From Psammoneis japonica (Eukaryota): DNA of 64,000 bases. Below, piece by piece: positions 3,902-55,900 of this stretch. Where the stretch lies: NCBI GenBank assembly GCA_008632985.1, contig QPGO01000185.1, positions 62,001 to 126,000 of the forward strand. The letters run 5' to 3'. The notes beneath the pieces were generated by a model, which saw only the letters and a list, made by a program, of their open reading frames with translations, was not told where the DNA came from and did not search any database. The position numbers were made by a program, and so were the translations under genes. Position 1 is the first letter of the stretch; each line of letters starts with the position of its first letter.

Positions 3902-4199
3902 GGGACAGTATTTTAGATCTCGTTATTCTAATTCTCGCCTCTCTATCTCGCTCAAGAGAAACCCATCTTTGAGCGACAGCTTCCTAAGACGGGTTTGCCA
4001 AACACTCAACAACTATTAACCTCCTCTTATCTCCTCTACCGTAGCTAAAGTAAGATGATGTACACTCCTCTCCTTGGTGTTTGGTCCACAGGCTCAAAGC
4101 AGTTCGGGCCTCTTTATAGCTACTGCTACTAAGTAGAGGGACAAACCGTTCATACTCGTAATTATTACTGTACGCGAGCCCCGCCCCCGTGTGGTGATC

Positions 4200-7100
4200 A
4201 TGAATGAAGGCGGTAAAATGTGCACCCGTTGATGTTTTGAATCGCCCTTTGCTCTGTCACACACACAACACCATGAGCAAGGAAGAAACGATGTTTGTAG
4301 AAGCCCCGGAGTTGTGCATGGAAGAACAATCAATGTGTCAATTGAGATGGGTTGGAATGCCACAGAGCTCTGGCTCCATCAACAAGAAGAGAACAAAAAC
4401 TTTGAAGAATGGTCGGGGGCAAAAACAACTGGGCCAAGTTCAGGAAGCACACCAGTGTGCTGTGTGACTTGGTTGAGATTCATGACTGTCATCAAGCACA
4501 TTTGTCATCCTCTTTGCAGGAAGCAAACCAGCACTTGATTGAGATGCATGACTGTGTCATCAAGCACACATTTGTTGTCCCCCATCTTTGCAGGGTGAAG
4601 TGTGTCTGGGCGTGAAATGCACAAAGAGGATGTGGCCAGGCAATTTCATGAGAGGTGGCTGACATTGCCTTGTGCTCAGACTCACCCTCAAAGGAGATTT
4701 GAAAATTGCTTCTCTGCAAAAACAAGCACTGCAAGTTGTTGTGAGTCTCTTGCTGATTTTTGTGTGCCACTTGGCTGATGCCAGATGAGTGCCAATCTTG
4801 ACCCAACAAAGCTGCTGGCACCATGCCAGCAAGCAAAAGAAGACCAGCTGTGAATTTGACCCAAAGCAATGTGTGGCTCTGTTTGCTTTGTTGCACTGAA
4901 AGGCAGCAAAGATTTGGAAAGATCAGCTGTGTCAGTGGTTTGTTTGGAGGACAATGAGTGCAGAGATGAGCTGATGTGGTGGTGAAAAGTGTTGGGGCAG
5001 CAGCAAGCTGCAAAACAATGTCAATCAACACAACACTGCAGCATGCATCAGACAACAGATGGGAGATGGAAAGCTGTGTCCTTTCCTTTGCAGCACTTGA
5101 AAATGACAACCACTGTGCTTGCTTCATGTGAAGAGCAAAACTTTGGGTTGAAGGGTGCTGAAGTGCCGCTGACTTGTTGCTGTCACACCTGCTGCAGAAA
5201 TGCCCAAAACTTTCCACTTTTCTTTTCAGCTTTTGTTGAGGAAGTGGAGGGAGATGCAGCTTTTCCATGCATTGTTGGCAGCATGGGAGCTGAGCAGATT
5301 TTGTTTTTGAGAATGACCGGAGGAGCTTCAGCATTGCTTTTGCTGGGATGGATGACATTCCCAGATGCCACATTGCCAGTTGCATGTGAAGTGCTGCAGA
5401 GTGGAAGAAAAAGGCTCTCTTGGCATGCACTGGGCATTGATGCTGATTTGGAAGGAACTTGCTTCAAAACACTTGGTGTCAAAACTTGGCAAGACATCAC
5501 TCAATCACATGCTTGTGAAGAGCGGCAAGGGGTGAGGGCTTTTTTTTGCCTTTTTTTGTCAGAGCACCTTGGCAAGAACCCATCTCTAAAGAAATGAAAG
5601 CCTTTTCCCACCACACAAACTTTGATGTCATCAATTTTCAAGAGCCCACCAAAATGTGCACCACATCAGCAGGGCTGTGCAGGGAGCCACCAATGACTGT
5701 GTGTCTCATCTGGCCATTCTCATGCCAAATGATCCAGCTGAGTGCCAGTGTGTCCATTTGGACCATCACATTGTCAAACATGGCTGTGCAGGACAGTGCT
5801 CAAGAATGTCCAAAAGCACAAAACAAAGAAGAAACAAGAGCAAGCTGCCAAGGCAAACAGATCAGTCATGAGCCAGTGTCTCTGGCGCTCCACTTGACTT
5901 CAGTTGTGCACTTTGCACAACCTTGCGCACATTGTTCTCAGCATCACCAAGACAGCATGGGACAATCCAGGTGACAGCACTGAGAAGGAGATTGAGTGCA
6001 GAAGTTTTGCTCAATGCCAGAAGCCACTTGTGACTTGCACTGTGCCACTGGGCTGCACGGCCAAGTTGAGACAGCAAGAGCTGGCCAGTCAAAAGCAAGA
6101 ATCTTGAGAATGCCAAGGAGGAAAAATTCAAAGCTCAGGAATCACTCCATGCCACTTGGAGTTAAGTTGCACTGAGCTTGGAAGTGGTGTAAAAGCCTCT
6201 CTGTTGCAAGCACATGGAGATTTGTGTGAATCAGCTGTGGGAGTGCACACACTCACAACTCACAAGTCAAGAGCAAGCACAACAAGACAGCCTGCTCTGC
6301 TCTGAAAGATCCATTTTCCAACACCAGTGCTTGCCTGAAACACCACTGTGGAACACATGAGAGCATGTTAGAATCTGTCGTTTGTGAATCTCCCATCGTC
6401 AGCACCAAGAAGCAAGCACAACCCGCTCTGTGAGATGGATCATTCAACAGAGACAACTGTCTCAGAATGCACAACCACAGCTCATTGTTCAGTGCCTGCA
6501 AGATGCATCCAAAGATGAGTCAGAAGATGTGAGAGTGACATTGAAAAATGTGGTGAGCAAACACAAGGAGATTTTTGGCTCATGTTCAAAGCTCTTGCAC
6601 CAAGGCTCAGATCTGCTGATGTGTCACAAATTAATTTGACATCAAGGGGTTCAAGGAGGATCTCACAAGATTTTCTGGGAGTTGCGCAACAGGTCCACAA
6701 CAACTGAGCTTTGCCAACTGATTGAGCAGCACATGGTGGAAATGTTGACCATGTGTGGCACAACAGGTTTCTTTGCCGAAGATGTGATGTTTTGAGTCTG
6801 CCGTCTGCACAGTGGCAAATTCCTTGGCCCAATGACATGCAGCCCCCTGGACAACAAGCACTTGGGTTCCAGGGGCAAGAAAAAACACAAAGCTGAACAA
6901 CAAAATGGAAAAACACAGGAGAAACATGGCTGAGTCGGGCAACAAAAGGTTGAAGAGATCCCAAGGGGGAAAGCAAGAAGCAGCACAGAAAAAAGTGAGA
7001 AAACAACAGAAGAAGATGTTGTGCCAATGCTCAGCTTGTTTGTGCACTTGCCAATTTCTTGGACAATGGGGTTGAGAGGATGCAGGAGGAAGATTAAGAT

Positions 7101-7450
7101 GTGATTTTCAAGTGCAAAGAGTTCATGCTGGCATGCTGCGTGAAATGCCTCAGCCACCTTTTGGGCTGGGCATGCCACGCCAGCAACGTTGGCGCCACAC
7201 TGCACAATCTCTTGGAACATGTTGTGTGGAGGCCTGCCCAGGATGCTGTGGAGCAGAGACACAGAACAAGAGGCAGAGGCGGCAACGTCTTCATCGGTGT
7301 TCGGTGGGAGACGAAAGTGGTGTCGTGGGCGTTGTGTTGTGAGAATGGGAGGAGTTGGGGGGGAAAGGACAGGAGGTCATGAGTTTTTGTTTTTTTACAA
7401 TTGAGCGAGGAGAGCGGAGCACGGCCGCCGGGATGGGATGGGTTGGGATG
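4200..7450. repeat. TpA/CpG-depleted hypermutated block 1 (degenerate repeat or gene relic, unclassified)
   Basis: Long stretches lack TA entirely (e.g. 4501-4800: no TA, one CG by eye) and TG/CA is in excess. ORFs in all frames are Tyr-free and rich in Cys/His. Boundaries are approximate. Confidence 0.8.
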
Positions 7451-37089: not shown

Positions 37090-37700
37090 CTTCATTTCCG
37101 CATGCTTTCTTGTGGCCGCCCTCCTTCCAGTGTTTCACCCGGGCAGTCTGTTGAACAGTGGATGGTCTTTTTACACCTGGAGCATTTCTGCAATGCATTT
37201 GGCCGATGCCCCAAGCAGTTGCACCCATGAGAGGAAGCCTTCACTTTTTCGTGTTGCGCAGCATGCCTTTGATCCTCAGAGATGGGCCATGACCATTGCT
37301 TCCTTTGGCATGTGGCAGCAATGGTGATCAAGGTCAAACAGAAATGGATCAAAGTCTGTGATCGCCCCCCACGTGTCATTGTGAGCAGCTCAGATGTTGC
37401 TTCTTGGATTCTTTCTGTGCACCACTGGAAACTTGGTGCAACCAAGGCACACTCTTTTTTCTGTTCCCTTGCCATTCTCTGGCAGACAAGGAGTGCCACT
37501 TCTTCTCCCAAGATTTGGACAGAAGAGTCGTTGTTGCTCTCCCAAGAAATTTGTTCTGTGGCTGTCTTGTGTGCCCACTGTTCCAATGAGAAACACAAGT
37601 GGTGTGACAAACCCACTTTGCACACAGGCATGAGCAGAGCCAACAGAACCTCTCAATCATCCATGGTGCAACAACAGCCCAACCAAGATGCCATCACATC
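37090..37700 (-). pseudogene. Decayed MYND zinc-finger gene
   Basis: LQKCSRCKKTIHCSTDC, then after a 1-bp shift RVKHWKEGGHKKACG. Matches MYND consensus C..C....YCS..CQ..HWK..HK..C with Y->H. Confidence 0.75.
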
Positions 37701-40700
37701 CAAGTGGCTCAGACATTTTCCTTTGAAAGGGCAGCTGCCTAGAACCATGCTGTCCTTTGGGATCTTCAAAGATGCATGCTTTGTGATGCCTTGGCCAACC
37801 TGTGAATGGACAGAGAACTTGATCATGGAGTTTGGACAAGTCAGGTGGGACTTTGGCAAACTTCCAACAAACATCTCTTTTGTTCTCACAAAGCTGAATT
37901 TTCAGCACAAAAGACAGACCAAGTGCTGCTTGCATGGTGCTGTCACTGTTGGGGTCCTCCTTTGCTCTGCTTTTCTCCAAGAAAGATGAATGAATTGTTT
38001 TGGTCAGCTTCTTAGCTCTGCTTTCATTGACGCAGATGTGTCATGCCACTTGCTGTCCCAACACATGGGCACTGAAGCAAGCAGATCATGGTTGTCTGCA
38101 AAGTCTACAATGCCCCATTTTGCAACAGCGCTTTTCTCAAATTCACCAGTGTTTGAAACAAAAGACATTGGAACCTTCTTCCAGCATGACCAGTGAGTGC
38201 ATCAAGAGAAAAAAGGCCCACTTTCAGGGCAAGCATGACTCTTCTGCAAGTTCTGGGAGGCACTTCTTTCCCTGTTGTCACTGTGCACTGTGCAAGAAAT
38301 CTCAGCATCAGCAGCATGGGGGTTTGCCCAAAGTGTCAGCAAGCATTCTTGAACCCAGAGTGTCAGCAAGCACTCTTGAAGTCACTCCCAAGCAAGTTTG
38401 ACAGTGGGAAAACCTGCACACATCCCAAAGACACATCCAGTTGCCAAGGCCACATGCCCATGCCATTGCTGCACAAGTCTTGGGATCCCTCCCACCATTT
38501 TTCTTGGAGTTGGCTGGGAAATGTGCCTGCCTTCCTTTGTCTGTTCAAGTTGATGAAAATGACAACTTTGTTTCAGCAATGATGCCAAATGCCAACAGGA
38601 CAGGTTCCCATTGGAGAGCAAACATCATGATGCGACCAGTGCTGGCATCAAAACTTGGAATTTTGTGAAGCCACAGAGCAGCTGAAAAATCAAGGACCCA
38701 GAGGTGTGTTCTGGCAAGCATTGTTGGGAAAAAAAAAGAGCATGGTGTTGGTCATGATGACTTGTTGTGCAACAGCTTTGCCAGTCATGCTTTTGCCATT
38801 GTGTGGCTTTTTGAAAAAGTTGAAAAAACACAGCAACACAAGAAAGATTGCAAAACCTCCCATGCCCCAAGAAAAGCCACACACAGTTGTGGTGATTGCC
38901 TGCTTGCAGTTTTCTGTGCACTTCTTTTTCACAGGGCATGGAGTTGTCACAATTTTTCCCCCTGCCCCAGCTCACAGTTGTCTGACAATGCATGCGCCTG
39001 TTGCTTGCTCTTTTCACCATGGCACTCTCATTGTCATCACCATGGTGGTTGCCACTGGTCTGAACTTGGGCACGTTTGTCAAGAAGCAAGCTTGCTGGCT
39101 GCATCTCCAAAAAAATGCTCTGAGAGGATCATTTGCTGAGGGAGCCATTGTTGTCAAACAACAGTGTGGACATTGGCGCACCAGCATCTGAGACTTTTTT
39201 TGGCAGGGTCACACTTTGCTCATTGCAGCTCTGCCACAGGTGGTGTCAACTGTTTGCAACATGAGAAGGAGAAGCCATTTTGCATCATTTGAAGTTTGTC
39301 CTTTTGCAGCACATCTTTCACATTTGACATTTTCCAATGTGACAACAAGCTTGAAGGATTGCTTCTGGTTGAGAGGAGCAACTTGCTCATGGCACTTTAC
39401 AACTTCAGGCAGGAGCAGGTGGCAGGTGACAGCATCTCATCAGATTGAAGTGCTGCAGCTCTGGGCACAAGTTGTCATGCCAGTTGTCACCAGCATTGTG
39501 TGCATGCTGGTTGGCTCCATCCTAATGTCCCCTTTTTCCCAAGTCTGCAGAGACAGGAAGTTGCCACACAGCAAGACCATTCAAAAGGACAAGAGCTCTG
39601 CACATGCTGCAAGTCTGGTTTTTTAAGTTGCCACTCTGCAAGACCATTTGAAAGGACAACAGTTCTGCACATGATGCCACATGTCTGGTTGGTGCATCAA
39701 TCTGATGCTGAGCATGGGTGTGCAGAGTGGTGGCCAAACTGCAGCTGTCATCTCGTGTGTCTTTTCATTGCCAACTTCTTGAATGACAAACCATCAGAGA
39801 GCAGTGAAGATTGGCTGGCCACGCCACTTTTGAACACACATTCAGCCACAAGCAGACAAGAAAGGGTGTTGTCAACAACAACAGGGTGGCTGTTGGATCT
39901 TGAGTGAGCACCCCACAACACCCAGCAGGAGCACCTGTCCTTTGGCCCATTGACAGAGTTCCAGTGCAACAAAACTTGAACACAAATGAGACAATTTGAT
40001 TTCCCACACCACACCAAGCAGCACACATTGTTTTTTGCCTTCTGAAACAATGCCTTTGCAGCACACTTCCAATTTAGCAAACCAAATGATTGGCTCCAAA
40101 GAGTGACATGAAAGTCAAACAAGGCAAGAGATTGGCAATGATGAAATCTTGCTTGTGAAGTTGCCAAATGAGCCAGCCATGCCAGAAGCCACAGCATGTT
40201 GTCTTCAACACATCCACAGGTTCTTTGCATTTTCCTGCTCTGGTGTTCCATCACACTCCTGCCACTTGCATTGATGTTCTGCCAGCAAGACAGGTCCAGC
40301 TGATTTTGAAAGGAAAAAGATCCCTCTGGTGCAGTGACCCAATTGGTGTCACACTCACCTCTTGCCCCACAGCTGACACCCTGCAACTCAGACACATGCA
40401 AGCTGACACACTGCCCATTGTCAGAACAATCAGCCATGTGCCATCAAACAAGTGTGACATGTCTTGTGCACACTCCACAAAATCCTCCACATGAGTGCAA
40501 CAAAATCTCTCTTTTGTGACTTCACTGTTTGAACCATCAATCAGGTCCACAATCCAACCATTGACCATCTCAGGAGTCAAATCTAAGAACTCCATTCCAC
40601 TGTGGAAACACCCATGCATGGGGTTCACATGGTCAATGTGATGGTGTTGGAAGAGCAACATCAACTTCCCAGCATCACAAATGGTGCCACATGCCCCACA

Positions 40701-41559
40701 TTTGTCCACACAAGGTGGGAAAACTGACACTCAACATCTTGCATGGGTTGCAGATGTTGTTCTTGTCTGGGGCTGGCTGCAACTGATTGCCCATTGATCT
40801 GGTGGTGCACTCATTTCTCATGTGCTCCTCACCATCATCATTGTGTTGGTGTCCGCAACAAGAACACAGTTCGCCTTGCCTCCCAGCTCAACCTCCCATG
40901 ACTTGCCAATGTTCTTTGTGGTCTTGTGTGCTTTGCAAGCATGTTGTTTAATCTCAGATGCTCTCCTTGGATCATTGTGGATGGAGAATGTCAGTGTGGC
41001 AGTGGACACACATGTGTGCACTTCAAGACTTCACACTGGTGCCCATTCATCCACATGGGTCCCACACCACAAAACCAGAGCATCATCTGGTTTCCCTCCA
41101 ATGGCCAATGGGGAGGTGTGTCCACAGAATCTCTCTTCATTTCATCAATGATGTCTCCCACATGAGACAGGTCTGTGACATCACGGCAGAGACATGGGTT
41201 GAAAGTAACCACATCTTGCTGCTTCTGACCCATTTGATTTGATTGATTCTTTCAATGCTCTGCCACAACAATCCTTGTCCACAGCCACTCATCTTTCATC
41301 TCCTGCCAAGTCTGCAAGTTTGTGAAACTTGCTCCAGCAGTTCCATGGCCATCACTGCCCCCCCACATTGTGCAGCACAGCAAACTCATTCTTGTCAAGT
41401 GCATTCATGGCAGATGTTGCTCTGAAGAACAAAATTGTGGCTGGTTGAACAGCATGGTTCATGACCCTTTCTGGGTTGCAGGGATCTTTCATCCATGTGA
41501 ATCAGAACTCTCGTCTGATGTGACAAACAGGAAACACTCTTGTTGCACTTAAAGTGGAC

Positions 41560-44500
41560 AGCCCACAATGGCTCATTTGAACTTTTGAAACTTCTTGCCC
41601 TGCAATGGTTTCTTGTTGGTCAGGAAGTCTCCAACAAGCACACCATTGGTTGGACAATGCTGTGCTCTGAAGTTGCCCTTCTCAACCTGATCAGTGGCAA
41701 AGAAACACCAAATGTTGAGTGCTCTGGACAGCTTTCCAGCACTCCTGCACCCATCAGTTTCCAATGGCACAGCAATTTCATTGTCCTGATGCAGGACATT
41801 CTTGTTCAATGGGATGCCCCTGATGCTCCATGAACAACTTTTTACACTGCGTCGCTGTCCCTGCATCATTGAATCCCACAAGTTCAGCCTCTGTGCTGCT
41901 TCCAGTGTTGAGCTTCTGGCATGTTGACAGAGCCTGCACTGCTCCATTGCCCACTGTCACAACCCCTTCTGTGTGGCTCTTAAAGTCTGTGGGTGAAATT
42001 GTTTGGTGTCTGGTTTTAACCTTGAGACAATGGACTGGCTTTCCCCAGTCCCCACTGGTGGGATCACTGACTCATGTGCACAATGCAGTGACAGTGGGGT
42101 GCACATGTGTGCAGCCTCTCTTGGACACAAACAGTGCCTTGGCCACCAACACATGGAATGTCTTCACTTTGGTTGTCAGTCGGCAATCTTGTGACACTGG
42201 CATCAAACAGGTTCTCTCCAGCTGGCATCATGGCAGCATCCATGCTCTTGATCTCTTCCAGGGATTGACAAATCATCCTGTGAAAGCAGCTGGCAATGTT
42301 GACCTTCACCCTGCCCTTGTGGTGGAGGTCCATGTGGTCACACCAAGGCAGCCATGCTTCTTCTCTTGCTCACCACAGCTCCCATGCATCTTGTTCTTTG
42401 GCCAGCTTGGAAATTTGTCATTTGTGCTTGGGTTCATGTGGCTGGAGATGGCATCATGGCAGCATCCATGCTGCTCTTGATGTCTTCTGGGAACTGACAA
42501 ATCATCCTGTGAATGCAGTTGGTCATGTCAACCTTCACCTTGCCCTTGTGGCAGAGGTCCAGGGTCACTCCAAGACAGCCATGCTTCTTCCCTTGTTCAC
42601 CATGGCTCCCATGCATCTTGTGGGCTGGCTTGGAAATTTGTCATTTGCTGCTTTTGGGTTCACGTGGCTGGCCAAGAACAGGTCACCCACATGGAATTGC
42701 ACACTGGTGTGTTGCTTCCCATTGATGGTTTGATTGCATGGATTGCATGGGTTGAACTCAAATACTTGATCTTCTCCAATTCTTTGCAAAATTGCACATG
42801 CTGCAGCAGAGCTGTGACCAACATGCCATGCACAGCTCCCAACAAGAGAACTCTTTTTCCCTTCTCTGTGACCAGATGTGGTCTGCACTGGTTGGGATCA
42901 ATGGTTGCAGGCATGTCAACCAACTCTCCTGCAATCTTCATCATGATCTGGTTTTTGCCTTTCTGAGGCTCCAGAGTCAGAATCTGCACAAGTGTGCTGG
43001 GCACATTGGCACTCATTGCATTGTGATCTTTCACATTGATGATGGCTGTCACTGGCATTCCTTCTGACAATGCTGTTGGGCTGGCTGACTCATCCTTGTC
43101 TGGCCATTCTCCAGTCAGCAACAATCTGCCCTTTGATGCAACTGTCTTGTTTCTCCATTGTGAACACCAAGGCAGCCATGGTCTTGTTGGTCCTCTCAGC
43201 CAAAGTCACATGTCCTTGACAAATGCTGGTGCAAAGCAGCACACTTGGTTGCGCACTTGTTTGACATCTTTTTTTGGGTGTTGCACCCCTTCTAGCCAAA
43301 TGCTTTTAAGCCTTCATGCAGCAAGTGTTGTTGGGCAAAGGAAAACCCCTTCCCTGGTTGGAGTTGGCCATTGATCTTGCACATGAATTGTGCCACTGCC
43401 ATTGCTGTTTCTGCATTGCCCTTGACATCATCCTCTGGATTGGGACTCATGTTCATTCAGAAATGGCAACAGCACTTGAGTCTGTTTTGCCATTGTTCTG
43501 CTGCTGCTTTGATGATGTCTGCCACTCCTGAGAACCAAACTTTCTTTTCTGTGTGCTTGTGTGATTTTGCATTTGAGGGTGCACCACTCCTTGTTTCTGC
43601 CAGGTGTGGCTGTTGCCTCTTCCTTCAACATTTCTCCTTCCTGTCTTCCATCTTCTTGAAATTCATTGTCATCTTCAAACTCTTTGTCATCTTTGTCTTC
43701 TGACTCTTTGTTGTCTTCATCTCCTTCATTGTTTTTTCTTTGACTTCTTGGTTCTTGTGCTGCTCACCAGTGCTGGATCTTTCATTGGCTGGGATCTTGT
43801 TTCTTGCTCCATGTTGTGTGACTCTGCTTTGTTGTCTTCTTAATCTTCACATTCTGACTCAGACACGTGGCCAGTGTTGTTGTTGTGCTTGTTTTTATTT
43901 TCATCTTTGTTTTCATTCTTTTTGGCATCACTTTCACTTTTGTCATTGTCCACTCCTGCAGCCCATTCAGCATCATGCAGATTGTCTCTGCATTTGCCCA
44001 TGAATTTGAGCTCTCCATGATGCCTTGTGATGTGGCCATTTTCTAGACAGCTCATGTGTGCGTGTCAGTCAAGGGTGTGGCAGTGCACTTGCAGGAACTC
44101 AAAAGCTTGCCTGTGTGCAAGTTCACAGTGCAGTGGCCACCACCCTTGGGCAAATCAAAACCTGGTTGCAGGCAGACACTGTCAATGCCATGCACATCCA
44201 TGTTGTTCACCAGGTTTTTCTCAACATGAGAGAATGCAAATTCCCCGAATGTGAACTCAAAGTGTTTGTTGCAATGAAGGTTTCTTCATTGCATGACAGT
44301 GTGTGGACTGCAAGAGTTGGAAATTCCCTCCTTCTGTGATTGCACATTCAGCATGACAGTGTTCTTGGTCACAGCATGCTTGTGTGTCAACTTTGGTGCC
44401 ATCTTGCATGGCAGACAGTGTGCAGTGGCTCAAGTTTGCTTCTTGATGGTCTGCATGCTCCTCTCAACTTTGGAGACATGATGGCCACTTGTGTTTGTGG

Positions 44501-46500
44501 ACATCAGCTCTAGACTCATGCCATCTGTGACTTCCACAGCATTGCTTTGAACTCAGTGGGATCACAATCAACAAAATTGATCTTGAACAAAGCTGTGCAG
44601 CACTGTCTGAGAATCATGTCCAGCACATCTTAAACATCAGCATGCTTTTTGGACTTCAGTCTCACACTTGATCAACATTTGACAGTCTTCTTGTCTGCTG
44701 CATGGAGCAGCTCAACACCACATGCTTCCATGATGTCAATGCAAAGGACTGTGCCTTCTCTCTGCTTCTCATGTGTCTTGGGTGGTGTGGCTGCAATGTC
44801 GCTCCTCTCATGGGAGAGATGTGCAGATTTGGCTTTGCTTTTTAATGTGTCCATTGGTGGGCCCCAAATGGCCACCATCCTGTCCACATCCTTGGGCATG
44901 ATGGACAAGTTTTTCACCCAGTTTGAATGTAAAATGGCTCAAAATCCCTCACATTGAGCATTCCAGCCTCATGTTGCAATCTGAGTGCTTGCTCAGCATT
45001 TGCCACCTCCCTCTTAGTGCAGCCTGTGCTGGAGTTCTGCTCCGCTGTTGGAGCCACAGTTCCAGATGCACACCATTGGGCTTCTTGTTCTTGTTCTTCT
45101 TTTGACAGCACATTTGCACACAACTTGCTTTCTTGGAGATCTTTTGCATGGTTGAAGAACTTCTTCTTGCTTGGTGCAAAAGCACATGGCCCAATGTCAC
45201 TCACTTTGAACATCGCAACTTGCGCGCCAGTTTTCTTGTCCAACAGTTGGAGCTTGTCTGCTGCGTTCTGCAATCTGAGCTTTGCACACCCTGTCCCCTG
45301 TCCAGGCATGGCACAGGCTTCATCTAAAGTGTCCATTCCTGAGTTTGTGGACAGATCAATCTTGATCTTTGTGGGTCGCACATTGCGCACTGGTCTCTGG
45401 CTTGCTGCCATGCTGAGGGCAGAACCATCCTCAAGGATGATTTCATCCAGTTTGATGCCTGCTGCATTGGCTTGGTTTGTGCTTGTCTCTGGTCTCTCAT
45501 TTGCCAGTTGCAACCCACGCAATGCAGTGCTCCTGCTTTGGACAGAATGGGTTGATCAGTTTGATCTAGCGCTGTCAACACTCATGTTGTCACTGTCTGC
45601 TGACAAATGGTCATTGCCTTGTGTCTGTGCATGACTTTGTCCCCTGATGTCCAGCTTCTTTCTGGTGTTCTTGAACCAATTTTCAAATGCAATGTCACTT
45701 CAATGCTTGCAGTCTGGGGACCTGTGGTTTTGCTCACCACAGCAGCGACAGTGTCATCTTGGCTGCCCTTCTGGGCATGGCTCTGGTCTCTTGGGTTGTT
45801 GGACTTTTCACTCTTGTGTTCTCATTGTTGCCATTCCTGTTCTTGTTGTTCATGCATTTGTTGGTCCTCTTGTTGTGTCATTTGTGAGGATTGTTGCTGT
45901 TTGGATGGTCAGATGGCACATCATCCATTGCCTTGTCTGGGGTCTTTGGACAGGCGTCCTTGCCCGGGCTGCAGTGTTCTCTTTGAACTGCTTGGTCTCA
46001 TGGTTGTTGTGGCACATTCATGCAACTCTGCTTTGTGCTGGCACCCCAGCTCCTTGTCTTTTTGCTGCTTCTCTGACAGGTTGACTTGGTGTGTCACACT
46101 GAAGCTGGCTGGCAGTGTTGTTGTCTTGAACATGTTTAAGTTGGGTCTCTTGGAAGCAAAATCCTTGCACATTTCATGTCTTCTAAAGATCTCACCAGGT
46201 GCACACCTTTTGTGCACTCTTTCTGCATGTGACAGATGACATTCTTCTTGACATCTTTGCACTTTGCATTGTGAGCATTGCCATTCAGTGACAAAGGATG
46301 GAGCTTCATCTCAGGCTGAAAGCTCTTCTCAAAGTCAGTTTTCTTTGCAGAGCAAAGAGATCTTGCAACTCTTGTCACCTCTGCCATCATGACCACAACC
46401 TCAGCCTTGATCTCATCCACTTGTTCCATGCTGCCTCCTCCACTGGCACCACTCATTGTGCTGGGTTCCTGCATTGGTCAACTGCATGAAAGTCAGTGTC
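41560..46500 (-). mobile_element. Degenerate Ty1/copia LTR retrotransposon (diatom CoDi-like), gag-PR-IN-RT-RNaseH order
   Basis: PR-like IILEDGS..TNSG (~45.4 kb). Pre-integrase/IN segment IWGP..TLKSK, VLCIDIM (~44.7-44.9 kb). RT motifs ASPT, MKIAGELVD, EFNPCNPC, QFHVGDL, KHGCLGVTLD (~42.5-43.1 kb). RNase H motifs SSTEAELVG, LHQDN, RALNIWCFF, DFLT.KPLQG (~41.6-41.9 kb). LTRs not confidently located. Confidence 0.9.
42223..42671 (+). repeat. Diverged ~226-bp tandem duplication inside copia RT
   Basis: Copies at 42223-42445 and 42449-42671 both start tggcatcatggcagcatccatg and end gtggctgg. Confidence 0.92.
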
Positions 46501-48379
46501 TGCAAGCACTGAACACAGTGCTGTTGACTCTTTGGAGTGAGTGTTGAGCCAGCAAGTCAACGTCACCAAAGGGGGTCCCACTGGGCCACCTGTGCCACTC
46601 AATGCACTTGCCTTGGTTGCTTGCAGCAGCTGTGGGTTGCTCAGAAGCTGTCAAACATGCTCAAAACTTGCAGTGCAACAGACACCCAGTGGTGCCAAAT
46701 GATGCCAAATCATGCAAACCAAATGATTCACTCCAAAGAGCAAGGCAAAACTAAAGGGTGAGAGGAAATTGGTGCCAATGAAATCTCACTTATCAAGAGT
46801 CACCAAATGAGCCATGTCAGGACCACAGTGTCTTTTTCTGTGCATCCAGGTTCTTTGCATGTCCCATGACCCAGATGTTCCAACAGCCTTGGGGTGTGGC
46901 TTGACCTTTGAAGGAGGAAATTGACTGAAAAGCCATTGACAGCCAACAAGAGGTGGCTTCCAATGGAGCACTTGTGGACCAGCCAGCCAGTGTCTTCATC
47001 CAGGATTGTGCCAACAACAGATGGCAGGAGGAACACAGTGATCAATTGGAGCTGGGCCTTGGCTGCCAACCCGGTGCAGGCTGGAAGTGTGCATTCTTCT
47101 CAGCATCTGAGAGGTGGGCTCAGTGTTCCTGCCACTGTCCCAGGCTGTGATGGGGCATCAACATCCAGAGTCTTGAAAAGGCTTTTTGGGTTTGCCAACA
47201 CTGGGCAAGCATGCACTGCCCCCCCCTCCCCATGGTGACAATCAGAGCAGCATGGAGGGGTGCTCTCTGTGACTGGTGGCTGGAGTCATGTGCCCCCCCC
47301 ACTGCTGCACAGCTGTGGAGCAAAGCCACAGCTGTGGAGCAAAGATTGGGGTCACCCATGCAGGGCCCAGCAAGCAAGAGACACCTGGAAACACTGTGTT
47401 TTGTTCTTGTTTCATTGACTGCAATGAATCCACAGAAAAGTCATCTTGCACAGAGTTGGGCACAGCGAGTTGAGTTGACAACACAACTTGAGTGTTGCCA
47501 CTTGATGGCCAACTCTGGAAAAACACTTTCCAGCTGTTTGCCAGCACTGGTCAACAGGCAGCTGTTCAAACAACAAACAGCGCAACTCTTGAGCTGTGAC
47601 ACATGATGCAGATTCGTTGCCACATCGTCAATCGTTGATGTCCACAATGTCTCGAGGTGATGACAGTTGACTTTTGGTGCATGAAATTGAAGCACTGAAC
47701 ATCTGCAGCAGCCCAGGCAGGGCGTGCCCTCTCTAACTCTCTGCTCTCTACTGCAGCTAGTCTAGAGAGCCCCGCTGCAGCCACCGGGTAGCAGAAGATG
47801 GCAGTGAGGACACTGGATGCACTCCTCCGCTTGTGCGCTTGGCCGAATTGTTGGCAAAGCATCATTCACGGTTCTCCAGTTCACTGTGCTCACATCTCGC
47901 AACTCGCAACTCGCAAGTGACATGGGCCATGGGAGCCCAATTTGCAATCAACACTTCTTTCTTCTTGTCCTCTGCTGGTGGTCATCCGCACAGATGCCAT
48001 GATGCCATGTGTGGCATCTCTGGCCTGCGGCAATCCTGGCATTGATTCTACGAGATGCCATGTGAGATGCCACATTTGTTTGTGACGCAGTCATGTAGAA
48101 CTTGCACCACTCCAACCGGTCCATGCCTGAAAGGTGAAAGTTGCGAGATGTGAGACACTGTTGTCATGGGTTGCAACTGTTGGAAGTGGTGCACAATGTG
48201 TGTCTGCAGCAGCTGGTCTTTTCTTGATGGTGTTGAGGATGCATGGCAACAGCTGACCCTGCGGGAGATGGAAGTGAATCTGGTGATGCCATGCAGCAAA
48301 CGCCAAGTCATGTTGTGGTCGCAATGAATCAGGCCAGCACCATGCAGCAAACACTGTCACACAGTCACACCACATGCTG

Positions 48380-50870
48380 TGCATCACTCTTAAGTTCATT
48401 GGGAAATTGACCCTTCTTGCACCCAGGTTGGCAGTGGATGCGTGGGTTGCTGCTTGTCCTGTGCTGTCATTGCAGGTCAACCCTTGGCCCCGATTCTTTT
48501 GACACAGCGGCGTGTCACACTCCGCACAGCACCATGATGTTGTGGTGCAATTGTTGTGCTTCAATTGTTGTGCTTCCGACACATCCAACAATTTTGTTGA
48601 TGCGGTTGACCAACATTGTGCCCGCTCTGAAGTTGCTTCTCTGTTGGAGGTCTCGTTGCATCGCCAGCATCATCAGTTGTTCGCTTGAGTGTTCCCACTG
48701 CCGGCTTGGATGGTGGAGTTCGAGGGAGACGGTCCCGGTCAGACCTGCGCTTGAGGCCTTTGCAGAGCATGTCTGAGAATTTTCTAGCCGTCATGGCTCC
48801 CCCATGAGTTGTTTGGTCATGGTGCCGATGGAGCCAGTGAAGATCCACAACTGACATTCCAACAGCAGTGACAAGAAGCCGGAACCAGCAACAACGTGTT
48901 GGCCATGAATTCTCCAGACCAAGAATGTCTTGTCTTTGTTTGTTGTGTTGGTCAATGATTGGCAGACACTCGTGTAGAAATTCGCAAAGTTTTGGGCACG
49001 GCAGTTCCTTCGATGCTGCTTCTCCATGCTCATTCTCGAAGTTCGACACACAAGGCACATCCGACGGAGAGGTTAGTCCACACATTGAAATGAAGTGTGC
49101 AACGCTTGATTCGCTCCACGCGTGACCCATGGCAATCAGCTGCACTCCAGCGATTGTCGTCGAGAACGTGACCCACTTTCCAGCCAAACGATTGCTGTGT
49201 CGTGCCATCATGACTCTGCGGATGGCAGCCCTTGGAAAGAAAGAAGTGTCATTCTTCACAACGAAGGTCGAGTGAACTTTGAACCGTTTTGACACCTCGA
49301 CGCAACTCACAACACTGCCGAACCATGCATCGCCTCCGACCCAACCGCCTTCCTTCACTCCTGCATGCTCCACTTGCCGCAGTGTTTCAGCCACATGCGC
49401 AGGAATGTTTGATCCATCAGGTAGACTGGATTGCTCACCGTGGCACTTCTTCATTTGCTGGTGTTCTGGCAGCTGAACCGGGTCGTTGCACACTAGAATG
49501 CCAGCAGTGCATTCGGCCCCATTTCGAAACATCGTTCCAAGAGGCACAGGCTTGCGGGGCTCACAGGTGCAATTCGGGAGTCCACCCAACTTGGATGTCT
49601 TGGGTCTCCAGCCAGACATAGACTCATCTAATGCCAGCAAGATGAGGGATTTGACAAGTTGTCGTCTCCTGTCATTGAATCCTTTCAGCGCCGGCAGAAA
49701 CACTTCCCATGGCATGTCGCGTTTGTCACGAAACCAGCATTGTGGGTCGGCCCAACAAAATGCAGCTGCGCTTTCGAAACACTTGAAAGTTTTCACGTCA
49801 ACATGTTGCCCAAAGTCGGGGTAGAACGAGCGACCCTCTGAAGCTCCCGACTTCCACAGATTTTCAACTCCACATTCAATTGTAGAAGCAGCTGCAATGA
49901 GCACTGTATGACACTGCTTCACTGTCCAATCTGGATCTTCAGCATCCGGATCATGGAAAGTGCGGTCAAGCTGAAGGCATGTAGCATGATGGCTTGCTCT
50001 CCTGTCACTCAGGTGTCTGTCCAAAATCTTTCCGTGACCAGTGACATCCGGGAGCACGTGATCAAAGAAATTCTCTTGAATGCTCTCATTGGCGAAGTCC
50101 ACGTCCTTTAATTCAACAGGTGGGTCCGGCACTGTAAGTGGAGACTCCATTACGTACTCCGTCTCGCCGTGCATCTTCCACACAACCTTCTTTTCAACGC
50201 ATCGCGGATCGGCTCCATGCCTCGTTTCAAAGATGGATTTTTGAGTGACTTCTGCATCTTTAAGCTCACAGAATTCATCCAATGATTGAAGTGCCAAAGT
50301 CTTCCTTGATTTTTTTGCTGCAGGTTCATTATCGTCGCCATCTTTCGAGCGGCTCCTACGTTCCTGTTCTGACATGGGGTTTTCCTCTTCCCAGTCCTGC
50401 ACGACGGTGATCTTGTTGGCGGTGACATGACGAACTCGTTCATCCGATTCAGGAAGGGTGTCAAAATCAACATCCCAACCTACTTTCGAATTTCCGCCCT
50501 TGACGGTTCCAAAAAAAAGAAAGTCGTTGGGGGCGTCGCGAGGCATTGCTTGTCGTTGCACCTCACTGAGAATGTGGCAGAGGTCCGTTCGTTTGACTTT
50601 CGCTCGACGGCCGATTTTCATTCGCTTTTTTGAACCTGTCTTCCTTTTCGTTCGAGATGTTGTCAGGGGCGGTTTCTGTGATCCAGAATTATTGCTTCTG
50701 CTGCTCCCTTGGTCAGATGCTTGAGGAGGCTGCACGGGAGTGCCTTCAACATCATTTGCAGGAGTCTCAGCAGCAGCAGCATTTAGTTGCAGAGCCAGGT
50801 CCATTTGAGCTCTTTCAACCACTCCAGTGGACGCTTGAGGTGTTGATCCATGTTCACCAATGGATTGCAT
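48380..50870 (-). mobile_element. piggyBac-like DDD transposase (PGBD/DDE_Tnp_1_7), inactivated
   Basis: 769-aa ORF 50870-48561 with LDESM, EPRKPVPLG, GDAWFGSV, IDQHNKQRQ..LE..WPT..CWFRL. The Cys-rich domain (CWMCRK..WCCAECDTPLC) is split by a frameshift. TIRs and TTAA TSD not identified. Confidence 0.9.
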
Positions 50871-51117
50871 GGGGGGGAGACACTCTCGGAGGCAGCGACG
50901 GCGGTCGCTTCTTGTCCGCTCATGGTGCCGGCACGCATTTGGCGTCTCGGAGACGCTATTTTTCAGTCAACTTCAGACGACTTCCAATGCAACTTCCGAC
51001 CGAAGACACCTTATGTAATGCATATGCCCCTGTTCTCTGAGTTGTTTAACGATTTTCTGTCAACGGAAAAAGACTTGGGGAGCACATGAAGCATTGTTCT
51101 GGTGTTTTGGATGGGGA

Positions 51118-51440
51118 TACTACAAATTGCAAAACAATTGCGCGATACACGTGCCCGAAGGTCGAATATCGTTGCCCGAAGCAACATTCTTCCTTCGCGC
51201 AGAATGTCCATTCTACATAGAATATGGTATTGAAAATCTCATTGTAGTCGCATGAGTCGTTGAAGTAACTTCATCAATGACCTCTGTGGTACTGTGCTAC
51301 GTGATCTACACAAATCGGACATTCTCGAATGCTGGTATATTTTCTACGGTCTCTACGTGCGCGAAGCTCTAATTTCGTGCCCGAAGCAACAATCACCCTT
51401 CGGGCACGTGTATCGCGCAATTGTTCAGCAATTCGTAGTA
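51118..51440. mobile_element. MITE with 44-bp terminal inverted repeats (terminal TA included, probably a TA target-site duplication, Tc1/mariner-like)
   Basis: 51118-51161 tactacaaattgcaaaacaattgcgcgatacacgtgcccgaagg matches the reverse complement of 51397-51440 with 3 mismatches. Internal direct repeat tgcccgaagcaaca. Confidence 0.85.
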
Positions 51441-51518: not shown

Positions 51519-52667
51519 ATGTCTTTCAAGGTTGAAACATCCTGTCCTAGTGACAGGAGCTACTGGTTACGTAGCAGGCGTTCTGATAAAGCAGTTGTTG
51601 GAGGCGGGAGTCAAGGTCCACGCCGCGGTTCGCGATCCTTCGAAGAAGGACCGTCTCGAATATCTTGTCAAACTTGCCGACAAGTCCCCCGGCAGCATTC
51701 AGTTCTTCCAAGGAGACTTGCTCCAGCCTGGAAGCTATGCAGAAGGAATGAAGGGGTGCTCCATCGTATTTCATACAGCGTCCCCTTTTGTAGTGAGCGT
51801 CAAAGATCCAGTCAAGGATCTTGTTGAACCAGCCGTCGAGGGTACCAAGAATGTACTTGAGCAGGTCAACCAGACTCCGTCTGTGAAGCGCGTCATCTTG
51901 ACTAGTTCCTGTGCTGCAATTTACACGGATGCATCTGAGACATACGATGCCCCAGGAGAGATTCTGACCGAGGAAGTATGGAATCGAACAGCCTCTTTGG
52001 ATTATCAGCCTTACTCCCTCTCCAAAACGTTGGCAGAGCAGGCTGCATGGGTGATTGCAGGATCGCAAAAGCAGTGGACCTTGGCAACGATCAACCCTTC
52101 CATGGTCATGGGACCTGGAGTCAAGTATCACGGCTCTTCCGAGTCCTTCTCCATGATCAAATCCATCGGAGGAGGCGAAATGGCGAGCGGGTGCCCCAAC
52201 TTTGCCATTGGTGTTGTGGATGTACGCGATGTAGCCCGAGCTCATATCGCAGCAGCCTACAAGGAGGGTGTCAAGGGGCGTCACATTCTCTGTGGCCATA
52301 ACATGCTTCAAATGGCACAGGCTCTCAAACCCAAATATGATGAATACCCCTTGCCACCACGCACTCGTAAGTATTTTTTGTCCTTATTGTTGTTTGTTAG
52401 AGAAGGAATCTTGTCTAACATTACATGGTGCACCTCGCTGGTTTCTTACGTGCAGTTCCAAAGACAATCGTTTGGGCCATTGCTCCATTCATTACAGAGG
52501 GACTCACGCGTCAAATGATAAAGAATAATGTCGACGTCCCCATCAAGTTTGACAACACTAAGTCCAAGGAAGAGCTTGGAATCGAATACAACTCGCTGGA
52601 GAACACCATGCAGGACATGTTCCAGGTGCTTGTTGATGAGGGTGTCGTAGAAAAGGCCAAGAAGTAG
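51519..52667 (+). CDS. NAD(P)-dependent epimerase/dehydratase (extended SDR, DFR/CCR-like)
   Basis: VLVTGATGYVA, VFHTASPF, VILTSSCAAI, YSLSK catalytic motif. Intron 52367-52455. ATG 51519 is out of frame with the body (apparent indel near 51540). Confidence 0.9.
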
Positions 52668-53049: not shown

Positions 53050-55900
53050 TGCCGGTGCGATCAATGCCCGTAGATTTTGTACTCATTTTGCCCCAGGAAC
53101 AGAAAGACCTTCACGAGCATCTGTGATCACATTTTGGAGTTTCTACAACGTCATCTCACAAACTTTGCCCTGAAGACCGGCACAGCAAGGCACAACCAGC
53201 TGCCACAAAGCCTTTTCATTCATCTCGTTTGTGTGATCCGATCACTGTTGGGGATGAGGGCCAGCCCTTTTCTCAAACAAGGAACAAGAAGCAAGTGTGC
53301 TCAGTCTTCCAAAACTGGTTGGCACTGATCCTTGCTGCAAGCATGGTGCTCTTGTGTTTGCAAGATGTGAGTGCTCAAACAGTCATGAGGGCAAACTTTG
53401 GTGTGCAATGGATGTGGCAGCTTGTTGGGCAAGTGCTGCTGTGGAGGAGAGTTTGGGGCTGTTGTGGAGATGCTGGTGCCGACTCTGCCTCTACAGGCCA
53501 CATGTCCAGACCAGCTCATTGGCCAGGCAAATGATTGCAGGTCTTGCTGAAAACAGCTGCAGTGCTGTCATGAGGGATTTGACAAAATCTTGCGCCAGTG
53601 GTGGTGGCAAAAATTGTGATGCCACTGCGGGCATCTTGAACCCCTGCCATTGCCAGAGCACATTTGATCTCACATGTTGCTTGTCAACCCTGGTCTGTTT
53701 GTTGACAGGCACCCAAGCACTTTCTTGATGGGTTTGATTGTGTGCAAGTTGTTGACAAGAAGCACATGTGATTTGGTCATTTGTGATGCTGTGTCATGTG
53801 CCAGATGTGCCGACTCTGCACCTGCCAACAATTTGGTGGCCGCTGGACATTTGGCACCCACTGAGTTGAAAAGGAAACGTGAAGACAAGTCAAAAAGGCA
53901 ACTGAGTTGTGGTGGTGTGAGGCAGTGCTGGTGCAGGAGATTGATGTAGAAGCAACTGAGAGCAAGGTAATGAGGGAGCTGCCATAAAAACTGTTTTTTG
54001 AGAAAGGCCCCAGATTTTTCTATGCACAGAGCAATGACTTTGGTCAAAAGGAGGCAGATCTTTTGAGATGCTGCAATGAAGTGACTGCAATGGCTCTGCC
54101 CTGACCATGTTGTCAATTTGAAGAGAGTTGGGCTGGAGTGAAAATGCAGAACAAGTTTGCTCACAAAATCCTTGCTTGGCATGTGGCTCAACAAAAAAGC
54201 ACTTGAGCAATGTTGACATGATCATGTTGATGCCACCACTCCCACAGAATGGCAAAATTTGCTGAAATTAGCTTCTGTTGTTCTTTTGTCTGCTCTGGAT
54301 TGACCCCAGAGATGCGCAATGTCATGTCTAAAAACCAAAAAGTGGGCAGCCCTTGCAGCAAGTTTTGACAGATTGCGTGGCACATTTTTGGTGTGCAGGG
54401 CAGGCAAAACATGGCCGCCAGCAACCGCAAGGATTTGGCAGCATGATGTGAAATGGAAAGTTGCCACAAAAGTGGGTTTTACATTGATGTTGTTGTTTGT
54501 CTTGGCATTGAAAAAAAAGATCAGCTCCCCTTCATCACACCTTTCACCACAAGTTGTGAATCCTGCACAATCTGCTTGACTCAAACATTTGAAAGTGTTG
54601 GCTGGATTTTGACCCTGCACCCCTCTGCCAGCCAGAGACAGAAACACCCCCAAGAGATGCAAGCACCATTGGTCTCCCACTCTCTTTGAGAATGGCACAT
54701 GTGAGAAAGAAAGAGGTGTGTGCATTGTTCATGGTGCCGTGCATTTGAAAATGGTGGAGCTGGCTTTTGCCAAAGGCAGCACCTTTCTCACAGGAGAGAA
54801 AGCAGCTGTGCAGGACAAATTTTTTCATGGCTCTGTGTGACCCCCAGCACACCCCTCTGCTGTTTCTTGAAGCCCCAAAAGATGTCAGGACCTCTCCACT
54901 GGCTGGTGTGATGTCAGCTGGTTTTTTTGGAAATGCACTCTGGTGAAAAACAGGGCTTTTGTGATCACACACAGCACCACATGGGATTGGGCAGAGCATG
55001 GCTGCTGCTGCCATGTGTTGATGCTTTGCAGTTAGCTGGCACAACAACAATTCAACCAAGTTCCACACAAGCAGCAACATGGTTGCTTGCTGTCCCAACA
55101 GAGAATGGTTTCCTGTGCACTGTTGGCCAATCCTCCTCAAGCACTGCTGGCTTCACAAATTTTTCACAACATTCAAGAAGTGCATTGCCAAGACAAGCAG
55201 CACAATGATTTGCTGCTGGAGTGTGAGGTGTGTGTGTTTGTTCTAATTTCTGTCTTGTTGTGCTGGTTGTGGTGCCAGAAATCAGCTGCAACAGAGACAC
55301 CTGCCAGCTTGCAGAGCGCCCAAGCTGCACATGTGAGAATTTTTTTCATGCTGCCCCCAAACTTGTGATGTGGTGAAGAGTGTCTTGTGTGCTGCCCAAG
55401 CTGTGTTTGCAAGGATGTGAGGCATGAACTTGCCAAGCTTCCATGCTGGTTTGCTGGCAATTTTACAAAAAAGCAGCGGCAATGAGCGCCACCCAGCAGA
55501 GCTGCAAAAACCCCCCATGAGCCACAGAGGGGGGCTTGCTTTGAGCACTATTTTCAGCCTTCCCTTCCCACATTTCATCTCAGAACTCCTGTTGCCACAA
55601 AGAAGCAACATAAAAAATGCACAGCACTTGAAAAGGCGGGAGTGCCAAAATGCTCCCCTGAAGTGCTGCATTTTTTTGTTCTCCTCAACCAGCACCACCA
55701 TGCTGGAGGAAGGGTTGAGAGTCTCTCAACTCACCTCATGGGCCGGCTCTTTTCAAGTCTCTTTTCAACTCTCTTTTCAACTCACCTCACAATCCAGGTA
55801 GAAGCCACACAAGCCTTTGGTGCAGAAAGACACCTGTCGAATGTCATCACAGTTCGAACGGCGCGAACGGAGATGCAAGGATTGCATGATGTGTCACGCA
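53050..55900. repeat. TpA/CpG-depleted hypermutated block 3 (unclassified relic)
   Basis: Strong TA and CG depletion with TG/CA excess and Tyr-poor ORFs in all frames. Sits between two normal genes. Confidence 0.8.

Follow-up and report, generated by a model that had tools for sequence, protein, structure and literature searches.

A dead piggyBac-superfamily transposase in a diatom-like genome and its probable hypermutation at TpA ahead of CpG decay

How can a transposase gene be disabled while its reading frame stays open? The question arises from a 64,000-nucleotide stretch of Psammoneis japonica DNA (contig QPGO01000185.1 of assembly GCA_008632985.1, positions 62,001 to 126,000 of the forward strand), referred to here as the window and numbered from its first letter. 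Its minus strand carries an open reading frame (ORF) of 769 codons (48561..50870), a piggyBac-superfamily transposase pseudogene with exactly two Tyr codons, both TAC. The dinucleotide TA occurs 21 times in this ORF (observed/expected ratio, O/E, 0.15) and CG 115 times (O/E 0.78), with TG at O/E 1.58 and CA at 1.31; the window background is 0.58 for TA and 1.00 for CG. These counts bear out the first-pass annotation, which had described a 769-residue ORF with many CG dinucleotides and two Tyr. The locus probably represents a dead member of a multi-copy family of piggyBac-superfamily DNA transposons, set in a diatom-like nuclear genome and hit by TpA-directed hypermutation, with a slower CpG decay following.

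Identity and damage of the transposase

Pfam recognizes no family in the ORF, DDE_Tnp_1_7 (PF13843) included, even at E ≤ 10, and sequence searches of the PDB with the ORF and with profile A1 returned nothing relevant, so a search by fold was needed. Searches of large protein collections yielded 182 and 2402 relatives, the best 57% identical and many previously annotated with PF13843; the named relatives come from the diatoms Seminavis, Nitzschia and Thalassiosira. The diatom affinity of the host genome is read from these names and from those of homologues of a neighbouring gene (Epithemia and Seminavis). Five homologues rescanned with PF13843 (P0001, P0002, P0003, P0060 and P0088) all pass at 23.6-37.3 bits against a cutoff of 22.4, and erosion by mutation, in a family that was divergent to begin with, is consistent with the missing match of the ORF. 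An AlphaFold model of the ORF, built on a 22-sequence alignment (predicted local distance difference test score, pLDDT, 73), retrieves the piggyBac transposase 6x67_C in Foldseek (E 8.3e-11). Comparison by VIA-align with piggyBac 6x67 gives Z 22.5 and a root-mean-square deviation (rmsd) of 3.8 over 385 aligned residues in model positions 250-720, and the scores for piggyBat 9c0f and Tn5 are Z 20.5 and Z 14. The model contains the RNase-H-like catalytic core and the insertion domain of solved piggyBac structures. Homologues and predicted fold together confirm the earlier assignment to the piggyBac superfamily.

Three Asp residues are invariant in 22/22 aligned sequences, and their motif positions, with the strand and helix layout of the model, point to a putative catalytic DDD triad, which had already been described as kept. 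The putative first residue is Asp415 (codon 49626..49628, minus strand), in the motif LDES just after strand 409-414; the putative second is Asp514 (49329..49331, minus), in GGDAWFGS after strand 505-513; and the putative third is Asp640 (48951..48953, minus), in IDxHN within helix 627-650. From its N-terminal end the pseudogene is laid out as an N-terminal region, a Tudor-like domain and finally an RNase-H-like catalytic core that includes the insertion domain. The small N-terminal beta domain (residues 81-160; 50391-50630, minus) resembles Tudor domains, with Z 7.1 and rmsd 2.2 over 55 aligned residues against the PHF1 Tudor domain 8h43_B, a score below the level of a safe match. If real, this domain suggests chromatin-guided insertion. 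The family shares with piggyBac and piggyBat (6x67, 9c0f) and with PF13843 the fold of core and insertion domain, the three invariant Asp and a C-terminal cysteine-rich region. What sets it apart is a strongly diverged sequence (10-13% identical to solved structures) and the additional Tudor-like domain; moreover, the window copy is a pseudogene, and its TTAA duplications and terminal inverted repeats (TIRs) were not found.

The claim that the ORF is still open holds for the 769-codon frame, which is free of stops, but not for its end. There a 14-nt tandem duplication (48547..48574, minus; 13/14 identical), read directly from the sequence, shifts the frame, supplies the terminating TGA and cuts off the cysteine-rich tail. 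The duplication is also present, with 0 other letters, in a contig spanning 48449-48828 from X1, a public sequencing run assembled from raw reads that possibly stems from the same sample as the window assembly and is not fully independent of it. The out-of-frame remnant of the C-terminal cysteine-rich domain (48389..48558, minus) is recovered by tblastn with P0001 and P0002 in two further frames, 48558-48490 (frame -2) and 48466-48389 (frame -1), covering homologue residues 767-827. The second frameshift may be a polymorphism or an assembly error, because the X1 contig of this locus has one extra C behind 48465. With 10 of its 11 conserved Tyr rewritten and its cysteine-rich domain removed by the 14-nt duplication, this transposase copy is a pseudogene.

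Tyr makes up 0.26% of the ORF, in contrast to 2.3-4.7% of the 21 aligned homologues, so the comparison proposed in the first-pass annotation finds a family that is not Tyr-poor. At the 11 columns with Tyr in at least 70% of homologues the ORF has CAY (His) eight times, TGY (Cys) twice and TAC once, that is, 10/11 changed; at columns with Tyr in at least 50% of homologues, 14/17 are now His or Cys. Six His or Cys residues had been singled out as replacing aromatic residues, and five of them do stand at Tyr positions of the homologues; the sixth, in MARHS, is a His conserved in the consensus ARHxDRP. The five correct examples correspond to C434 (Tyr in 14/21 homologues), H356 (17/21), H583 (21/21), H592 (18/21) and the pair H633 (18/21) and C635 (17/21). 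The alignment supports a mutational origin of the Tyr loss rather than a family trait.

Loss of TpA measured against loss of CpG

Does TpA disappear faster than CpG, as had been proposed? In the ORF, the 18 conserved Arg columns hold CGN in 11 cases, AGA in four and TGC, TGG or CAC in three (Arg to Cys, Trp or His). With 11 CGN kept and three columns changed, at most 3/14 CGN Arg codons have been lost, compared with 10/11 Tyr codons (Fisher p=0.001). A direct nucleotide comparison comes from a metagenomic scan of transposase relatives, in which 80 loci were kept; whole-locus TA O/E is 0.17-0.37 in six and 0.48-0.89 in 74. The test pair consists of TA-depleted L079 and TA-normal L047, 92.5% identical over 1408 bp. 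From L047 to L079, 28/47 TA have become TG (15) or CA (13), against 3/22 in the opposite direction, and 13/81 CG have become TG or CA, against 1/67 in the opposite direction; the difference between TA and CG conversion is significant (28/47 vs 13/81, p=5.9e-7). TpA loss therefore outpaces CpG loss per site in both comparisons. Our own arithmetic from the surviving fractions yields an estimate of roughly 6-10 times faster loss per TA site than per CG site.

The same state recurs in relatives. Across the transposase region of four independent depleted elements (L044, L048/49/50, L074 and L079), TA O/E is 0.11-0.25 and CG O/E 0.73-0.84. Tyr content is 1.63% in L079, the least converted, and 0.14-0.35% in L044, L048/49/50 and L074. 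The description of the window copy as caught mid-process is accordingly overstated: since four independent environmental relatives are in the same state, the stage looks common and long-lived. Conversely, L054, L071, L072 and L076 have lost CG alone (CG O/E 0.19-0.26, TA O/E 0.69-0.78), so the TA and CG processes are separable, and the TpA process seems to be lineage-specific.

Among the depleted relatives, L048 and L050 represent one TA-depleted element, 99.6% identical over 5.7 kb, with differing left flanks at about 2354-2360. In the terminal TA-rich part of their common repeat, L048 has TG at two sites where L050 has TA. L049 is likewise 99.6% identical to them apart from alignment columns 1432-1781, where 15 differences cluster in 350 bp; at five of these sites L049 has TA and L048/L050 have TG or CA. 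The cluster has the appearance of a conversion tract, or else of a chimera joining two copies that had reached different stages.

Within the window, the ORF occupies the right-hand end of a 14-kb, nearly TA-free stretch (37-51 kb). Change points and composition delimit a zone around it (47580..50960) that is depleted in TA (30 TA, O/E 0.15) with CG largely kept (155 CG, O/E 0.69). TA depletion ends at 50957-51012, and CG density has a change point at about 47581. Beyond this point lies a fully converted island (37250..47580) with 31 TA and 41 CG in 10.3 kb and TG/CA at about 1.9 times expectation. Two others lie at 4250..7250 (7 TA, 21 CG) and 53250..55750 (13 TA, 16 CG), and the three together have TA O/E 0.05, CG 0.09, CA 1.91 and TG 1.84. 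Island edges are sharp, with TA per 250 bp jumping from 0-2 to 10-20, as also in L048, L050, L074 and L044. Divided into 256 bins of 250 bp, the window has 174 bins with normal TA and CG, 65 with both low, 17 with low TA and normal CG and 0 with normal TA and low CG. Of these 17, the piggyBac zone (47501-51000) accounts for eleven and the margins of other islands for three; the remaining three, isolated in genes (13001, 16001 and 26001), look like chance.

Conversion is specific in its dinucleotides and acts on either strand. Only TA and CG are depleted and only TG and CA enriched, the other 12 dinucleotides staying within about 0.25 of background O/E. The near equality of CA and TG products in L079 (13 vs 15) means that both strands were changed about equally, which excludes editing of transcripts. 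The 28 conversions do not cluster significantly by strand (12 runs vs about 15 expected, computed by hand). Enumeration of codons establishes that TA to TG or CA cannot create a stop: TAA to TGA stays a stop, and nothing else gives one. The sole CpG change able to do so is CGA to TGA, and 12 CGA codons are intact in the ORF. The earlier argument that such conversion adds no stops and acts by missense while leaving long frames is thus sound, and stop-free frames of 578-791 residues persist in L044, L048/L050 and L074; the longest in L079 has 245.

The bases on either side of TA also matter (R, purine; Y, pyrimidine). From L047 to L079, every RTAY site was converted (11/11; 7 TG, 4 CA), compared with 4/8 RTAR (all CA), 10/19 YTAY (7 TG, 3 CA) and 3/7 YTAR (1 TG, 2 CA), and the changed A favours a 3' pyrimidine (22/50 vs 6/44, p=0.0015). 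Sites that survive are distributed accordingly. In the window islands RTAY accounts for 3/81 surviving TA and YTAR for 43/81, against 523/1772 and 284/1772 in the background (chi-square p=4e-18). In three depleted relatives the figures are 0/61 and 38/61, against 232/1014 and 224/1014 in TA-normal siblings (p=1e-12). The pattern among survivors could partly arise from new TA created by C to T change at YCA sites. Because the flank rule can equally be written as R-T*-A, with the T as the edited base, editing of A and editing of T are indistinguishable.

Proposed course of events and its rivals

After insertion, or in the lineage of copies, the element would have undergone hypermutation at the DNA level, TpA becoming TpG or CpA by A:T to G:C change on either strand. 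This process would target transposon-derived islands with sharp edges, prefer R-T-A-Y and spare Y-T-A-R, and would convert TpA roughly 6-10 times faster per site than CpG decays to TpG or CpA. As no stop codons can result, the transposase would die by missense (Tyr to His or Cys, among others) and its long frame would remain. CpG decay would come second and more slowly, presumably through deamination of 5-methylcytosine on silenced transposons, and the end state would be the TG/CA-only sequence of the three other islands. Of this course, the data demonstrate the direction of change, the choice of dinucleotide, the action on both strands, the preference for flanking bases, the order of the two rates and the recurrence in relatives. 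We infer that the TpA process is enzymatic and directed at transposons, carried out by an adenine deaminase acting on DNA or by a thymine-modifying enzyme. Confinement to islands with sharp limits is observed in the window; transposon nature is established for the piggyBac zone only.

Several points weigh against this account. The retention of CG may mark the reach of methylation rather than time, and the direct per-site count stems from a metagenome relative, not from the window element. The first ~150 bp of the repeat common to L048 and L050 are TA-rich rather than depleted. A search for TIRs and TTAA target duplications around the transposase zone found no convincing pair, so the depleted zone may or may not match the element exactly. 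The best candidates are at chance level by our own estimates: an inverted repeat of 15 nt (46917-31 and 50960-74), with about 0.5 such pairs expected, and a match of 24 nt in purine/pyrimidine code (48002-25 and 50998-51021), with about 0.1 expected. TpA conversion would itself erase TTAA. Finally, the flank rule predicts Tyr to Cys at least as often as Tyr to His, yet the conserved Tyr columns of four elements pooled have 28 His and 10 Cys (binomial p=0.005). His outcomes have no excess of purines before the converted Tyr codon (5 purines, 4 pyrimidines), and the coding-strand CA/TG ratio, 0.76-1.00 in depleted elements vs 1.08-1.18 in siblings, indicates that TG gains more. One idea for the His excess is survival of copies with the milder change.

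The alternative that survives best is spatial. Here the same TpA process acts throughout, and it is CpG methylation and decay that stop near 47.58 kb, so that retained CG is no sign of youth and there is no time series. CG density does shift abruptly at about 47581, three other island margins have bins low in TA and normal in CG (7251, 37001 and 53001), and the TA-depleted relatives all sit at CG O/E 0.73-0.84, as if CG loss had stalled. Against it, CpG-type changes are present both in the ORF (the three Arg replacements) and in L079 (13/81). Copies of the element in X1 bear on the same point; their site differences from the window are given for 40 of 512 places, 21 of them inside 47.7-50.95 kb. 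Among these 21, six sites pair CG in the window with TG or CA in another copy and one site is the opposite, which indicates that CG decay does act on the family. Four further sites have TG or CA in the window and TA in another copy, and two are CA/TG double differences. On balance we regard the spatial account as unlikely, though it deserves to be taken seriously. That the transposase is younger than the adjoining island, and that the two give a time series, is plausible; the edge of a methylation domain would look alike.

A repeat-induced premeiotic process resembling repeat-induced point mutation (RIP), triggered by duplication and carried out by a DNMT4/RID-type enzyme, might be invoked for the loss of both TA and CG. 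The transposase element is indeed multi-copy, a conclusion drawn from the summed X1 contig depth of about 170-300 over about 47836-51008 vs 56 in the flank. Its X1 paralogues, in pieces 84-87% identical and with CA/TG double differences, differ mainly by transitions (381 vs 129 transversions among the listed places). Diatom DNMT4 enzymes, described as having no known function, group with fungal RID (PMC9998398). The chemistry is nevertheless wrong, as RIP changes C to T and raises TpA, and A:T to G:C is impossible for a cytosine methyltransferase or deaminase. Copy number does not fit either: TA is not depleted in a 323-bp element of very high copy number (51118-51440, summed depth 4000-6000), and the fully converted stretch 46834-47580 lies within a span of single-copy depth in X1 (46834-47835). 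A RIP-like origin is therefore improbable.

An artefact of assembly or base calling, in which modified bases in silenced DNA are read as TG or CA, is very improbable. The window and the same-locus X1 contig (46715-47987) do differ at three places, two with TG in the window and TA in X1 (47743 and 47815) and one CG/CA site, and X1 has the extra C behind 48465. That contig is nonetheless identical at 1270/1273 positions, and X1, possibly the window's own sample, reproduces the TA-depleted sequence elsewhere too (records with 0-3 other letters; three further contigs with 0-1), while the signature recurs in independent metagenome assemblies from several projects. Natural composition, that is, an active, Tyr-poor piggyBac lineage that avoids TA through selection or codon usage, could appeal to the long open frame and the three kept Asp, but hardly merits credence beside homologues that all have 2.3-4.7% Tyr and match PF13843 where the ORF does not, changed positions that are Tyr in 14-21 of 20-21 of them, a cysteine-rich domain lost by frameshift and one-directional TA loss in the L047/L079 pair. 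Editing of transposon transcripts by an ADAR-like enzyme in U-A context, followed by reverse transcription and reintegration, shares a 5' U/T preference with known adenosine deaminases acting on RNA (also discussed in a Bigelowiella natans preprint), but is scarcely conceivable for a cut-and-paste DNA transposon that has no RNA intermediate, is changed on both strands and is TA-depleted in its non-coding flanks as well.

Known systems, wider meaning and neighbouring features

The closest likeness to the TpA-directed process comes from Bigelowiella natans, in which TpA hypermutation of integrated nucleocytoplasmic large DNA virus (NCLDV) and virophage DNA has been described (Mettrop et al., bioRxiv 10.64898/2026.01.13.699255). 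That preprint reports that, of 231 de novo mutations found across two regions of integrated viral DNA, 230 were A to G or T to C, all on TpA; mutation-accumulation lines gave a local de novo rate raised about 1000-fold; DDE-endonuclease and reverse-transcriptase domains were over-represented among coding sequences poor in TpA; and an ADAT2-like deaminase was proposed as the enzyme (10.64898/2026.01.13.699255). Both systems change A to G and T to C at TpA, with TpG and CpA as products on either strand, and both are confined to regions of foreign or selfish DNA, with a transposon in the window evident for the piggyBac zone only. They differ in host, B. natans being a chlorarachniophyte (Rhizaria) and the window coming from a diatom-like stramenopile. 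They also differ in the kind of record: for B. natans there is a de novo measurement of the rate and TpA is partly depleted (region Rho_TpA 0.45), whereas the window preserves the end product near saturation (O/E 0.05-0.15), and its only hint of a raised de novo rate is the two TA/TG differences in 1273 bp between window and same-locus X1 contig. In the oldest window islands TpA loss is coupled with complete CpG loss, unlike in the described B. natans regions, and the R-T-A-Y preference in the window data has no counterpart in the consulted parts of the preprint. With this diatom-like genome there is apparently a further example of a hypermutation that one preprint has described, in another lineage.

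Fungal RIP is similar in its role in genome defence, its dense transitions that inactivate transposons, its dinucleotide preference, its sharp regional limits and its skewed dinucleotide indices. In contrast, RIP changes C:G to T:A, mostly at CpA, and creates TpA and stops, whereas the window process changes A:T to G:C, removes TpA and makes no stops; the indices in the window (TpA O/E 0.05-0.15, CpA/TpG O/E 1.45-1.91) are the opposite of a RIP signature. Diatom DNMT4 enzymes are described as resembling RID (PMC9998398), and such enzymes could not cause A:T to G:C change. CpG methylation of diatom transposons has been reported (PMC2806351 and PMC9998398). Decay of 5-methylcytosine shares with the window the loss of CG to TG or CA in transposon islands, complete in three window islands; it cannot explain the loss of TA, and it is the slower of the two processes in the window. 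A full-text literature search for TpA loss or RIP-like mutation in diatoms found no report. SPLASH (PMC9258296), also checked, proved irrelevant.

The transposon copy itself is ordinary, and what it adds is a testable flank motif and an order of rates. A broader reading credits diatoms, and perhaps, taken together with Bigelowiella, a large part of the SAR supergroup (stramenopiles, alveolates and Rhizaria), with a dedicated editor of transposon DNA that recognizes R-T-A-Y and changes A:T to G:C. Taken with all that follows from it, this reading is tentative and falls somewhat short of probable. Elements that had just been silenced would be its early and rapidly converted targets, without dependence on CpG-methylation decay and before it; piggyBac would lose its TTAA and terminal sequences in the process, and the stop-free 'zombie' ORFs left behind would be reported as proteins by gene callers. 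On this view, selection among copies during editing would be recorded in the preponderance of Tyr to His over Tyr to Cys.

If a TpA-directed editor acts on diatom transposons, this major phytoplankton group would have a type of genome defence that is not known from it. Its chemistry would be opposite to that of fungal RIP, and it would be open to test through the R-T-A-Y motif and the order of rates relative to CpG decay. It would also explain why old diatom repeats escape homology annotation, as with an ORF 57% identical to its best relative yet without a Pfam match, and with islands that are unrecognizable. Hypermutated elements stay open and enter protein databases: 8/202 predicted homologous proteins of at least 300 residues have at most 1% Tyr. 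Since diatoms lend themselves to genetic work and have served in mutation-accumulation studies, a direct hunt for the enzyme would be feasible.

The island adjoining the transposase zone had been called a fully converted copia element. Its conversion is evident from the 31 TA and 41 CG that remain, but copia is without support: a motif scan of the 37.25-47.58 kb island for reverse transcriptase and protease, tolerating Tyr to His or Cys change, found nothing. Pfam searches of 51 frames of at least 110 residues from all three islands and of 82 frames of 62-109 residues from 37.0-47.6 kb gave weak sub-threshold matches only (zf-MYND, CxC1 and others). The stop-free frames of this island look like noise, and no island has a repeat copy within the window. 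Inside the island, at 42220-42671, about 226 bp are duplicated in tandem (84% identical). Just within the neighbouring transposase zone, at 47734-47789, five TA stand within 55 bp in surroundings otherwise free of TA.

Directly beside the TA-depleted zone lies the 323-bp element at 51118-51440, with normal TA and CG and 44-nt TIRs that are 93% complementary. Its summed X1 contig depth of 4000-6000 compares with 56 for single-copy sequence, and one X1 contig joins 51116 to 51441 with three letters between, which resembles an empty site. It is probably a very high-copy miniature inverted-repeat transposable element (MITE) that escapes the TpA process. A gene at 51532-52518 on the plus strand encodes a protein resembling NAD-dependent epimerases and dihydroflavonol reductases. 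Its best named eukaryotic matches are from Epithemia and Seminavis, and bacterial proteins score about like the diatom ones (about 60% identity). Over its last ~70 codons this ORF seems to run on into an intron or into untranslated sequence.

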